Assembly: GCA_030840525.1 (NCBI GenBank)
Contig: JAVEEI010000131.1
Span: 526-64,525 of the forward strand
Length of the DNA stretch: 64,000 bases
Direction of reading: 5' to 3'
From: Frankiaceae bacterium
GTDB taxonomy: Bacteria; Actinomycetota; Actinomycetes; JAFAQI01
The notes below the pieces were generated by a model. The model saw only the letters and a program-made list of their open reading frames with translations. It was not told where the DNA came from and searched no databases. Of the stretch, positions 40,596 to 42,750 are shown piece after piece; position 1 is the stretch's first letter; each line of letters opens with the position of its first letter. A program made the position numbers and the translations under genes.

Positions 40596-40641
40596 CTTGT
40601 CAGCACCACACGGGGCTATAGCCACGCGTGGTGCTGACAAG
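40596..40641. terminator. Perfect 14-bp inverted repeat (cttgtcagcaccac ... gtggtgctgacaag) just 3' of the coiled-coil gene and inside the whiB leader
   Basis: Seen directly. No T-tract follows it, which is common in actinobacterial terminators. Confidence 0.4.
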
Positions 40642-42750
40642 TCACGGGGCGCTGGGTTGGTCCCCCTCGGGCGACGCCGGGGCCTTCTTGGCCGGGGCGG
40701 CCTTCTTCGCCGCTGCTGCCTTCTTGGCCGGCGGGGCCGCCTTCTTCGCCGCCGCTGCCTTCTTGGCCGGCGGAGCGACCTTCTTCGCCGCCGCTGCCTT
40801 CTTGGCGGGCGGGGCCGCCTTCTTCGCCGCGGGCGGCTTGAACGGCTCGGCCGGCTCGACCGGCGCGGTCAGCGCCGCCAGCGGGTCCGGTACCTCCGGC
40901 AGCGCGACGGCCGGCTCGCCGGCCTTGGTCCGGCGGTACCGCTCGGCGTCGCGGGCGTCCCGCCGGCGGTCGAGCGACTCGCCGACCTTCACCGCGAGAC
41001 CGCGGCGCTCCTTCGCCGACAGCCCGGACGCGAACTCGTCGAGCACCTCGTGCAACACCCGGTCGCGCTCCGCTTCGAGCGCCCGGTCGCGCTGCGCGAG
41101 GTAGGCGACCAGCGCCTCCCCCGCCTGCGCGAGCCGCTCGGTGGCCCCGGCCACGTGGCCGTTCGCCGTACCGACCGCCGCGGTGCTCTGCTCGACCGAG
41201 CGCCGCAGCTCACCGACCACCGCCGTCATCTGCCCGCGGAAGTCGGTGACCGCGGCCTCGGCGGTCTTGCGGGCGAGGTCGATCGCGGCATCGGTACGGC
41301 GGTCCCACTCGGCGCGCATCGCGCTGACGACCTCGTCGAGGCCGGCCACCGTCTGGTCGAGCGACGCCAGCCGCGCGGCCGCCTCCTCGCTGTTGCGGCC
41401 GGCGGTGACCACGCCGGCCCGCATCTCGTCGAGGCTCGTCCGGGTCGTCGCGCCGGTCTCCTCGACCCGGTCGAGGACGTCGGAGCGCAGCGACCGGACC
41501 ACCTCGTCGAACGCACCGCGCTGGTCGTCGACCGAGCCGGTGATCGCCTCCTGCGCGCGCGTCACCGTCGCGGCGATCCGGTCACGAACCTCTTCCAGCG
41601 CGTCGGCCAGGTCTTCGCGCAGCGACGCTACTTCGCTCTCGACGAGCTGCCGGCTGTGCGCGTTCGCCCGGTCGAGCCCGTCGATCGTCTCCGACAGCTC
41701 GGCGACCAGGCCGGTACGCGCCTCTTCCAGCCCGCCGCGCAGTGCCGCCTGGATGTCTTCCAGCCTGCCGTCGGTCGACACCTGGAACGCCTCGATGAAC
41801 CCGCGCAGGTCGGCGACCCCGGCCGACGACGCGTCGCGGACGACCGCCAGTCTCTGCTCGAGCTGTGCGACCGCCTCGTCGACCGTGCCGCGTAGCTCGC
41901 CGACGACGGCGTCGACGTGGCCGTGCTCCTCTTCCCGGCCGCTGCGCACCGCGGCGTGCAGCGAGTCGCCGAGCGAGCCGAGGCTGCGCTGCACCGCTTC
42001 GGCCAGGTCGCCGAGCGCCGCCCGGATGTCGCCGGCCCACTGCTCCTGCGCAGCTGCCTGCTCGGCGAACGTCGTACGGGCCAGCTCGTCCAGCCGCTCG
42101 GAGACCGCGCCGATCCGCTCGTTCGACGTCGACGCCGTGTCGCGGGTCACCGCTTCGAGCCGCTCGGCGAGCCCGTCGAGGGTGTCCTCGATCGCGGCCA
42201 GCCGCTCCTCGACCGCCGACCGCACCTCGGTCCACGAGGCCTCGGCCGCGCGGTTCGACGCGGACGCCTGGGTCAGGCCGGCGGAGAGGGTACGGCGCAG
42301 GTCCGCGGCCGACGTGTCGAGCCGGTTCGCCAGCGACTCTTCCAGCCGGGTGAGCGTCTGCTGGGTCGTGTTGGCACCGCCCGGCAGCGCGTCGAGCGCC
42401 GTACGCAGGTCGGGCAGCGCGGACCGCACGTCGGCCATGACCGCGGCGACGTCGTCGACCCGCTCGGTCAAAGCCTCCTGCCGCCGGCCCAGCTCCTCGG
42501 TCTCGGCCCGCGCCGAACCGAGCGCACCGGTCAGCCGGCCGGCGCTGCCGTCGACGCTCGCCTTGACGGCGGCGAGGTCAGCACGCAACGTGCCGAGCTC
42601 CGCGCGCAGGCCGCCGAGCTCGGCGCGCAGCCCGGTCATCGCCGCGGCGAGGACCGGCCCTTCGGGCGGCGGCTGTTCGTCGGCGGCCGCTTGCGCCGCG
42701 AGCTGTTCGATCCGGCGGAGCAGCGCGCCGGGGTTCGCCTCGGTCTCCAC
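40642..42750 (-). CDS. Ala/Glu/Arg-rich predicted coiled-coil protein (about 700 aa) with a C-terminal PAKKAAA-repeat basic tail
   Basis: GTG at 42750 with taagg upstream, 29 nt after the fbiC stop. The long helical low-complexity body (LAERLEAVTRD..., EELGRRQEALTERVDD...) ends in (AAKKAAPPAKKA)n, like the HupB/H1-type tails. Confidence 0.65.
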   Translation of the reverse strand: METEANPGALLRRIEQLAAQAAADEQPPPEGPVLAAAMTGLRAELGGLRAELGTLRADLAAVKASVDGSAGRLTGALGSARAETEELGRRQEALTERVDDVAAVMADVRSALPDLRTALDALPGGANTTQQTLTRLEESLANRLDTSAADLRRTLSAGLTQASASNRAAEASWTEVRSAVEERLAAIEDTLDGLAERLEAVTRDTASTSNERIGAVSERLDELARTTFAEQAAAQEQWAGDIRAALGDLAEAVQRSLGSLGDSLHAAVRSGREEEHGHVDAVVGELRGTVDEAVAQLEQRLAVVRDASSAGVADLRGFIEAFQVSTDGRLEDIQAALRGGLEEARTGLVAELSETIDGLDRANAHSRQLVESEVASLREDLADALEEVRDRIAATVTRAQEAITGSVDDQRGAFDEVVRSLRSDVLDRVEETGATTRTSLDEMRAGVVTAGRNSEEAAARLASLDQTVAGLDEVVSAMRAEWDRRTDAAIDLARKTAEAAVTDFRGQMTAVVGELRRSVEQSTAAVGTANGHVAGATERLAQAGEALVAYLAQRDRALEAERDRVLHEVLDEFASGLSAKERRGLAVKVGESLDRRRDARDAERYRRTKAGEPAVALPEVPDPLAALTAPVEPAEPFKPPAAKKAAPPAKKAAAAKKVAPPAKKAAAAKKAAPPAKKAAAAKKAAPAKKAPASPEGDQPSAP
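40680..40850. repeat. Tandem repeat of about 45 bp (gccttcttggccggcggggccgccttcttcgccgccgctgcc), about 3.5 copies, encoding the AKKA tail
   Basis: Seen directly in the sequence. Confidence 0.7.

Follow-up and report, generated by a model that had tools for sequence, protein, structure and literature searches.

A gene beside whiB in uncultured Frankia-like actinobacteria encodes a predicted hendecad-type rod protein with a lysine-rich tail

Between fbiC and whiB in a 64-kb stretch of DNA from an uncultured Frankiaceae bacterium (GenBank assembly GCA_030840525.1, contig JAVEEI010000131.1; hereafter the window) lies a minus-strand gene for a 702-residue coiled-coil protein that consists of a long, predicted helical rod and a disordered tail rich in lysine. 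Here we show that this protein belongs to a new family restricted to one lineage, which combines design elements already known, and that its gene is robustly linked to whiB. We propose that it is a lineage-specific, non-enzymatic structural protein in which a hydrophobic stripe would drive parallel, in-register homo-oligomerization into a rod that could reach about 87 nm. Each such rod would present two or more lysine tails for non-specific binding of a polyanion, with chromosomal DNA as the likeliest target, and the N-terminal helix and a C-terminal module may dock a partner or mediate higher-order assembly. Such a protein could serve as a spacer or scaffold anchored to the nucleoid, combining in lamin-like fashion an intermediate-filament-type rod with a histone-H1-type tail. 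As the weakest step of the proposal, it may act in, or be expressed with, a WhiB-controlled division or development programme, a role suggested by the position of the gene immediately upstream of whiB. We consider the structural part of this picture very probable, DNA binding by the tail, argued by analogy, somewhat favoured, and a functional link to WhiB doubtful; the combination of scaffold rod, DNA-anchoring tail and WhiB link is about evenly balanced between right and wrong.

The gene starts at a GTG codon (42750), preceded 9 nt upstream by AAGG, and ends at a TGA codon (40642–40644). An original prediction, made from the sequence alone, had placed it at these coordinates but as 703 amino acids; the 703 codons include the stop. 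It had also put the start 29 nt after the fbiC stop (42780–42782), and the same gap, together with the same 702-residue gene call and no Pfam assignment, is found on a Joint Genome Institute (JGI) metagenome contig (L034; sample 3300044736, Ga0467036_0000499) that differs from the window by 2 mismatches over 10.3 kb. The GC content of the gene is 75.5%, and other frames of the region also hold open reading frames (ORFs) of more than 400 residues, as is usual at 75% GC. They would fit a spurious long ORF, a product of the high GC content whose protein is never made, yet we regard that explanation as having practically no chance of being correct. GC contents at the first, second and third codon positions (GC1, GC2 and GC3) are 0.79, 0.54 and 0.93, against 0.72, 0.51 and 0.94 in fbiC. 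Compared with the two closest orthologues (L001 and L002, 81–86% amino-acid identity), the ratio of non-synonymous to synonymous substitution rates (dN/dS) is 0.17 and 0.19 at an unsaturated dS of 0.50–0.57. Full-length homologues with 45–86% identity share conserved start and end modules, and all homologue starts fall at one aligned position. The artefact was rejected because of the 93% GC3, the low dN/dS and the conserved family with its conserved ends; the coiled-coil gene is a genuine, conserved protein-coding gene under purifying selection. It contains no bldA-dependent TTA codon.

A word-indexed search returned 40 homologues, many of them full-length with 45–60% identity, and when 1.84 billion cluster representatives were searched exhaustively with a profile, 96 clusters came up at E ≤ 1e-30, rising to 162 at E ≤ 1e-10, so that the frame, whose loss in relatives the original prediction had named as the sign of an artefact, is conserved. 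The 31 loci taken from GTDB species representatives all belong to metagenome-assembled genomes (MAGs) labelled Frankiales, Frankiaceae, Mycobacteriales or Actinomycetota; 20 further cluster representatives are likewise metagenomic or MAG-derived, bar one spurious butterfly protein. So far, the family appears to be restricted to one clade of uncultured Frankia-like soil actinobacteria.

AlphaFold2, run with an 18-sequence alignment, places helices at residues 7–24, 32–120, 126–461, 467–575 and 582–609 and leaves residues 637–702 disordered; the protein is thus predicted to be almost wholly α-helical, as had been proposed. Confidence in the full-length monomer is moderate (mean predicted local distance difference test score (pLDDT) 65.6, predicted template-modelling score 0.26), a value expected for an extended molecule of this predicted kind, and pLDDT falls below 50 in the tail. 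Fourier analysis of the large hydrophobic residues over the whole protein gave a peak at a period of 3.64 residues (power 4.48) and no power at 3.5; shuffled sequences in the same analysis gave a power of 0.65 ± 0.24, with a maximum of 1.75. Residues 32–120 have a period of 3.53 (power 4.0), that of a classical heptad coiled coil, with a narrow stripe (71–89% LIVMF in 3 of 11 sectors). This segment includes three seven-residue units (GLRAELG, GLRAELG and TLRADLA) encoded by a 21-bp repeat at 42573–42634, for which Tandem Repeats Finder (TRF) counts 3.0 copies. The rod proper, residues 126–461, has a hendecad-type period of 3.655, with a power of 8.9 against 0.03 at 3.5. Its stripe covers about 3 of 11 angular sectors and remains in phase across 336 residues; when the rod is written in rows of 11, the hydrophobic residues line up in three columns, as is typical of hendecads (a/d(e)/h). 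One flank of the stripe is enriched in arginine, and the middle of the polar face in aspartate and glutamate. A run of 487 residues, from 124 to 610, lacks proline altogether. As a straight helix the rod would measure about 50 nm, and the whole helix set about 87 nm if fully extended. The hendecad periodicity that the original prediction had suggested looking for is therefore present, and the long coiled-coil-type rod it described stands, as a non-heptad one; its description of the protein as periodic acidic and alanine-rich repeats does not, since what repeats is a hydrophobic stripe with periods of 3.53 and 3.655.

Homologues follow the same plan, with a period of 3.52 in the N-terminal segment and of 3.60–3.645, without heptad power, in the rod. 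Rod length ranges across the family from about 320 residues (L022) to more than 1100. Among closer members, lengths differ by 4, 7, 11, 15, 18, 26, 37 or 44 residues, values close to whole turns of 3.64 residues, as would fit selection for an unbroken register of the stripe; some of the more divergent short forms depart from this rule. At the N-terminus, which is polar and charged (METEANPGALLRRIEQLAAQAAADEQPPPEG), residues R13, E15 and L17 of the first helix do not vary among the 18 aligned sequences. Conservation across the family is highest in a C-terminal helix-turn-helix module (residues 467–610). It precedes the linker and tail and has as its core, at about residues 535–606, RLxxAGxALLxYLAxRDxLLExERDRVLHEVLDEFAxGLSAKERR...RRRDARDAERYRR. 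In the acidic linker that follows (residues 611–636), residues G611, P618 and P621 are conserved, with L627 almost fully so.

The tail reverses the composition of the body. Its 66 residues (637–702) comprise 17 lysines, no arginine, 28 alanines and 13 prolines, with four PAKKA and eight [PA]AKK motifs, whereas residues 1–610 contain 70 arginines and only 5 lysines. All tail lysines are encoded by AAG, and the tail is the sole lysine-rich stretch in the six frames of the window. Residues 626–702 have an isoelectric point of 10.4 and a net charge of +13; the body has a net charge of −39. Lysine itself appears to be selected, because 17 lysines and no arginine occur in the tail of a 75.5% GC gene whose body is arginine-rich. 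The tandem DNA repeat that underlies the tail lies at 40675–40830 and has a period of 39 bp, 4.1 copies and 87% matches (TRF), encoding the 13-residue unit AAKKAAPPAKKAA; the 45-bp repeat in about 3.5 copies, with a 12-residue unit, that had been read from the sequence does not match this. The charge polarity is shared by 33 of the 35 family sequences scored, in which the body carries −34 to −62 and the best 60-residue tail window +8 to +20. The exceptions are the truncated P0015, which ends 3 residues after the motif, and P0039, a divergent member with a tail that is not basic (−6). Tail sequences cannot be aligned across the family, and those of L001 and L002 are longer and differently organized, so tail length and repeat organization do differ between close relatives, as the copy-number variation suggested for the repeat implies. 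Together, the comparison of sequences indicates that the charge rather than the sequence of the tail is under selection.

Lysine-repeat or PAKKA tails recur in actinobacteria as a means of binding DNA non-specifically. Those of HupB (PMC5676037), HupS (PMC11229371), Ku (PMC3553676), TopA (PMC5714199) and DdbA (PMC3643593) raise the non-specific affinity of these proteins for DNA, and MLDS (PMC5504291) is a further example. The tail described here is of the PAKKA type, so the resemblance to HupB-type tails drawn by the original prediction holds; like the tails of HupB/HupS, TopA, Ku and DdbA, it is a disordered Lys/Ala/Pro segment of a length that varies between species. Those tails are attached to folded HU, topoisomerase, Ku or DksA domains, whereas this one extends from an acidic rod with no recognizable DNA-binding fold. 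Only the tail resembles HupB: the HU fold (Pfam Bac_DNA_binding) has no Pfam or NCBIfam match in the protein.

No curated Pfam or NCBIfam family matches the coiled-coil protein above threshold, in keeping with the earlier view that it belongs to no standard annotated family. Apolipoprotein, DUF1664, SpiroCoCo and the MCE helical tail match below threshold and Baculo_PEP_C at its cut-off; we read these coiled-coil-type matches as reflecting periodicity and composition, not homology. A Foldseek search of the full AlphaFold2 model against the PDB gave nothing at E < 1. Searched alone, the C-terminal module had no Pfam and no PDB match, and a second word-indexed search with its profile recovered only six fragments, all from the same family. 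Our search of the literature on coiled-coil proteins associated with whiB2 or Frankia, and on PAKKA coiled-coil proteins, found no description of the family. Its members carry conflicting automatic names: ‘chromosome segregation ATPase’, ‘DNA-binding protein HU-beta’ (two homologues), ‘prefoldin subunit 5’, ‘archaellum component FlaC’, ‘BMFP domain-containing protein YqiC’ and ‘Stringent starvation protein’, the others being ‘hypothetical’. These names look like coiled-coil or low-complexity mis-annotations, with no domain above threshold behind any of them, and the HU-beta label probably reflects the tail alone. The chromosome segregation ATPase label we treat as spurious because there is no SMC_N or hinge match and the periodicity is not mirrored. 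For annotators, the family can be defined by its N-terminal LLRRIEELA helix, the EERLAAIEDTLDGLAERLEA and LRxDLADALEEVR motifs and the YLAxRD-to-RRRDARDAERYRR part of the C-terminal core.

An SMC-type coiled coil, one of the comparisons made in the original prediction, is also at odds with the rest of the protein. Neither a Walker A/B ATPase head nor SMC_N or a hinge has a Pfam or NCBIfam match. An antiparallel, SMC-like fold-back was rejected, as heptad periodicity is confined to the N-terminal ~90 residues and the order of segments is asymmetric rather than mirrored around a hinge.

The closest analogy for the rod is offered by the actinobacterial proteins FilP and Scy. Members of the DivIVA/GpsB/FilP/Scy superfamily are defined by an N-terminal GY[DN]xx[QE]V[DN] motif that directly precedes a dimeric heptad coiled coil (PMC9858780). 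Strict and relaxed regular expressions for this motif found it in neither the window protein nor the 182 family proteins retrieved, and Pfam DivIVA is not among the 25 matches listed (all E ≤ 0.43) of the 26 at E ≤ 1. Membership was rejected on these grounds, and the earlier assignment to the ‘Scy/FilP/DivIVA kind’ survives only as an analogy. The likeness lies in a short N-terminal heptad coil followed by a long, alanine-rich hendecad rod, an order found in the window protein and its homologues alike, and in the lack of an enzymatic domain, a variable rod length and an actinobacterial host. In Streptomyces, WhiA and WhiB directly target and co-repress filP, itself a hendecad coiled-coil gene (PMC4850268), and the coiled-coil gene adjoins whiB. 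The cores differ: FilP and Scy dimers have alanine-rich hendecad cores (PMC9858780), whereas here the core is mostly leucine, valine and isoleucine. Because the stripe is not made of alanine as in those dimers, the protein may form oligomers larger than dimers or have its helices packed into bundles. The Lys/Ala/Pro tail and the C-terminal module do not figure in the description of FilP and Scy in PMC9858780.

The same likeness allows a reading in which the protein is a self-assembling, intermediate-filament-like element whose tail bridges to the acidic rods of its neighbours instead of to DNA, forming a stress-bearing or polar meshwork as FilP does. The short-heptad-then-long-hendecad plan shared with FilP and Scy (PMC9858780), the conserved complementarity between acidic rod and basic tail, and rods that vary from about 320 to more than 1100 residues, as is typical of structural rods, all fit it. 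It is nevertheless improbable: there is no homology to FilP, Scy or DivIVA, the tail has exactly the PAKKA make-up through which a number of actinobacterial proteins bind DNA, and the assembly that this reading supposes is putative.

An equally close analogy, missed by the original prediction, is that with HBHA, TadA and MLDS, which are also restricted to actinobacteria and also join a helical, apolipoprotein-like or coiled-coil N-terminal domain to a PAKKA tail. It supports a different reading, in which the 11-residue amphipathic helices would lie on the phospholipid monolayer of a triacylglycerol or wax-ester inclusion, or on a membrane, and the PAKKA tail would bind DNA or anionic lipids, tethering inclusions to the nucleoid as in MLDS. 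The best Pfam match of the coiled-coil protein is Apolipoprotein A1/A4/E (74.2 bits, in 4 stretches), ApoLp-III is also listed, and the sole sequence matches in the PDB are to ApoA-I and ApoA-IV (E ~1e-5). A period near 11/3 and a charge layout partly like that of class A amphipathic helices point the same way. HBHA, too, has Apolipoprotein as its top, sub-threshold Pfam match, shares the plan of a helical domain followed by a Lys/Ala/Pro tail, and its tail binds heparin and phosphoinositide-like lipids (PMC6176652). MLDS, the major protein of lipid droplets, uses its PAKKA motifs to bind DNA non-specifically (PMC5504291). A wax-ester synthase/diacylglycerol acyltransferase (WS/DGAT) gene is present in the window (2120–3520, minus strand; WS_DGAT_cat 265 bits, WS_DGAT_C 113 bits). 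With this gene the organism can probably store neutral lipid, which makes such storage plausible here and keeps the lipid-inclusion reading open.

Set against this, the Apolipoprotein match does not reach the gathering cut-off of 90 bits. ApoA-I consists of tandem 22-mer or 11-mer amphipathic helices punctuated by proline. Proteins of that type (ApoA-I, ApoA-IV and ApoLp-III; PF01442) share the 11-residue amphipathic periodicity and give weak profile matches, but the coiled-coil protein is bacterial and cytoplasmic, with no evident signal peptide, and has a narrow, coherent stripe without proline punctuation; the resemblance is most likely one of composition and periodicity rather than homology. 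Homology to HBHA was provisionally rejected, the best BLASTP match covering only 28 residues at a non-significant E of 0.013 for the single comparison. HBHA has an N-terminal hydrophobic segment before its coiled coil (PMC6176652), which the coiled-coil protein lacks; at 702 residues the latter is 3.5 times as long as HBHA or MLDS (HBHA, TadA and MLDS have about 200), its stripe is continuous and free of proline, and its body charge would be unfavourable on anionic lipid surfaces. Its gene is found in the context of whiB, with no lipid-metabolism gene linked in any locus. We therefore judge a role at lipid surfaces to be unlikely, if less so than the filament without DNA, and prefer the nucleoid-anchored scaffold.

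The gene downstream of the coiled-coil gene encodes a WhiB-domain protein (PF02467, 95 bits) with four cysteines and a C-terminal GIWGG...RRR motif, features that, together with its place in the conserved neighbourhood of fbiA and the Zincin_1 gene, mark a WhiB/WhiB2 orthologue; it is 75% identical to Streptomyces coelicolor WhiB. The surrounding conserved actinobacterial backbone of the window comprises secA, hpf, lpqB-mtrB-mtrA, sahH, pmm, genes for Zincin_1, DUF5719 and GT2 glycosyltransferase proteins, whiB and the divergent fbiA (cofD). Among related loci with enough flanking sequence the order is fbiA (divergent), fbiC where present, the coiled-coil gene, whiB and the glycosyltransferase gene, and, among the 27 loci with sufficient downstream sequence, whiB starts 90–320 nt past the coiled-coil stop in 24. 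It lies farther downstream in the other three: L030, with whiB about 4 kb beyond a short N-terminal match; L020, a frame-disturbed assembly; and L022, with one inserted gene and a gap of 2.3 kb. L022, in which the coiled-coil gene is a short form of 324 residues, is the only case of an interrupted pair. The insertion there (6789–8681, plus strand) is an ORF for a 630-residue secreted, metallophosphatase-like protein with a long low-complexity tail of the (SPTD)n type.

Adjacency to whiB is kept where fbiC is missing (L015, L017, L019, L022, L028 and L031), where the glycosyltransferase and DUF5719 genes are absent (L033) and in members only 29–31% identical. No family member was seen at any other locus among those recovered. 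The link to whiB is thus robust, and that to fbiC incidental, because at least six loci lack fbiC at the site. Of the two neighbours named in the original prediction, then, only whiB is a consistent one, and the position directly upstream of and co-oriented with it is conserved in the informative loci. A linkage of SCO3031 with whiB has been noted (PMC4255298).

With a family limited to one clade and an fbiA–whiB neighbourhood of ancient origin, part of this synteny could be due to inheritance alone. In the extreme case, the gene would have no functional relation to WhiB: a fast-evolving, low-complexity coiled-coil gene, inserted once into the ancestral fbiA–whiB interval and kept by descent, whose 3′ end and hairpin would mainly insulate the whiB promoter from transcription arriving from upstream. 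This would be in line with the narrow distribution of the family in uncultured Frankiales/Mycobacteriales genomes and with an actinobacterial backbone whose synteny is old throughout (secA ... mtrAB-lpqB ... pmm ... Zincin_1-DUF5719-GT-whiB / fbiA-fbiB), as well as with the conserved promoter block that whiB has of its own and through which the ORF of some members simply reads. The adjacency, however, has outlived independent rearrangements to either side, among them the loss of fbiC, that of the glycosyltransferase and DUF5719 genes, and the L022 insertion, and purifying selection and the conserved N- and C-terminal modules also speak against it. A gene wholly unrelated to WhiB in function strikes us as quite improbable.

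The intergenic region bears on how the two genes are expressed. Nearly all related loci (L001–L031) share a strongly conserved DNA block of about 65 nt upstream of whiB, CAATACCACC..CTTGAC..GGTACGACGCGCGTGTAATTYCA..GTGTC.TTCC, which includes a TTGAC element resembling a −35 box and a GACAC-containing segment. The block is probably the whiB promoter/operator region; a generic sigma-70 scan did not call it. Between it and the coiled-coil gene is a hairpin with a perfect core of 14–15 bp (40595/6–40609 and 40628–40641/2), set in a palindrome with 31-nt arms that are 87% complementary and overlapping the stop codon of the coiled-coil gene. Its fold has an energy of −63.8 kcal/mol (z = −7.7 against shuffles). 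The 14-bp-stem hairpin at 40596–40641 had been reported before, and exists, but not inside the whiB leader, where it had been placed: it sits upstream of the promoter block, in the position of a terminator or insulator. No U-tract or T-run accompanies it, and a canonical intrinsic terminator was rejected for this reason. The stem occurs once in the window, so that a repeated element resembling repetitive extragenic palindromes or miniature inverted-repeat transposable elements was rejected as well. The hairpin is absent from the same position in the closest relatives, L001 and L002, and Rfam has no match anywhere in the window. The separate whiB promoter block and the hairpin between the genes argue against obligatory co-transcription.

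In some relatives (L003 at ~8090–8136 and L007 at ~4625–4670; proteins P0002, P0005, P0007 and P0011), the coiled-coil ORF reads through the promoter block. The apparent conserved C-terminal peptide of these members, NTTEPLDGxGTTRV before the stop, is the translation of AATACCACCGAACCCCTTGACGG...GGTACGACGCGCGTGTAA, and its conservation is at the level of DNA, not of protein.

Several of these points weigh against a nucleoid-anchored scaffold connected with WhiB. Oligomerization, filament formation and DNA binding of the coiled-coil protein are all inferred from its sequence, and the full-length AlphaFold2 models are moderately confident and of monomers only. The stripe is filled by large hydrophobic residues, mostly leucine, valine and isoleucine, and not by alanine. 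The 11-residue periodicity, the sub-threshold Apolipoprotein matches and the PAKKA tail fit a lipid-surface protein too, and lysine tails can also bind phosphoinositide-like lipids, as in HBHA (PMC6176652), or the acidic rod of the same protein. A single insertion into the already ultra-conserved fbiA–whiB neighbourhood, passed on by descent, could account for the conserved synteny with whiB; whiB keeps its own conserved promoter block, and in the window a strong hairpin separates the two genes.

A bolder form of the scaffold proposal is an independently evolved ‘bacterial lamin’, in which the hendecad rod and H1-like tail would couple the nucleoid to a division or polar scaffold and be paired with WhiB as part of its regulon or as a partner. 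We think this unlikely. If the scaffold reading is right, Actinomycetota would have invented a hendecad intermediate-filament-like rod a second time, without homology to the first, and this would be the first such rod with a PAKKA-type DNA-anchoring tail like those on HU, TopA, Ku and MLDS. The pairing with whiB would then offer a handle on how WhiB-controlled division is coupled to nucleoid organization in lineages without well-studied models. All hosts are uncultured, and what we say of function is inferred; the architecture is not startling in itself, and it is through its pairing with whiB that the protein becomes a candidate of interest for actinobacterial cell biologists. The positions of the gene, its parts and its neighbours are collected in Table 1.

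Table 1. Positions in the window of the coiled-coil gene, the segments of its product and the adjacent elements.
Feature	Position	Strand	Basis
Coiled-coil coding sequence, 702 residues	40642..42750	-	ORF/translation, GC1/2/3, dN/dS, JGI gene call, shared aligned start
Short N-terminal helix (residues 7–24, consensus LLRRIEELAAQA), then Pro-rich linker 25–31	42679..42732	-	AlphaFold2, alignment
Heptad coiled coil (residues 32–120)	42391..42657	-	Period 3.53, 21-bp repeat
Hendecad-type rod (residues 126–461)	41368..42375	-	AlphaFold2, period 3.655, no proline
C-terminal conserved module (residues 467–610)	40921..41352	-	
Acidic Pro-rich linker (residues 611–636, GEPAVALPEVPDPLAALTAPVEPAEP)	40843..40920	-	Alignment, composition
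Basic Lys/Ala/Pro tail (residues 637–702)	40645..40842	-	TRF, pLDDT, charge, PAKKA count
Palindrome/hairpin	40588..40649	.	Folding, uniqueness, comparison with L001 and L002
whiB promoter-like block (probable; CAATACCACCGACCCCCTTGACGGGAGCGGTACGACGCGCGTGTAATTTCATCCGTGTCCTTCC)	~40461..40524	-	Conserved between coiled-coil stop and whiB
whiB (WhiB/WhiB2 orthologue, 86 residues)	40091..40351	-	PF02467; starts 290 nt past coiled-coil stop
fbiC (bifunctional CofGH / FO synthase)	42780..45242	-	NF006687, 1413 bits

Elsewhere in the window, a 333-residue ORF at 61916–62917 (minus strand) has high GC3 and a Pro/Thr/Lys-rich N-terminus (..PAPARTTPKPKPKPKPARAT..), with no Pfam family at E ≤ 1e-5; its product would be a further low-complexity protein. 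ARAGORN called a 90-nt tRNA-Glu(CTC) at 24566–24655 (plus strand), inside a predicted high-GC3 ORF (24447–25664, plus strand); the call is probably a false positive, because Rfam finds no tRNA there at its gathering threshold. A gene sketch based on GC3 left 8089–10560, 46236–48498, 54216–56076 and 56969–58264 with no confident gene, and fbiB probably accounts for part of the second of these intervals.

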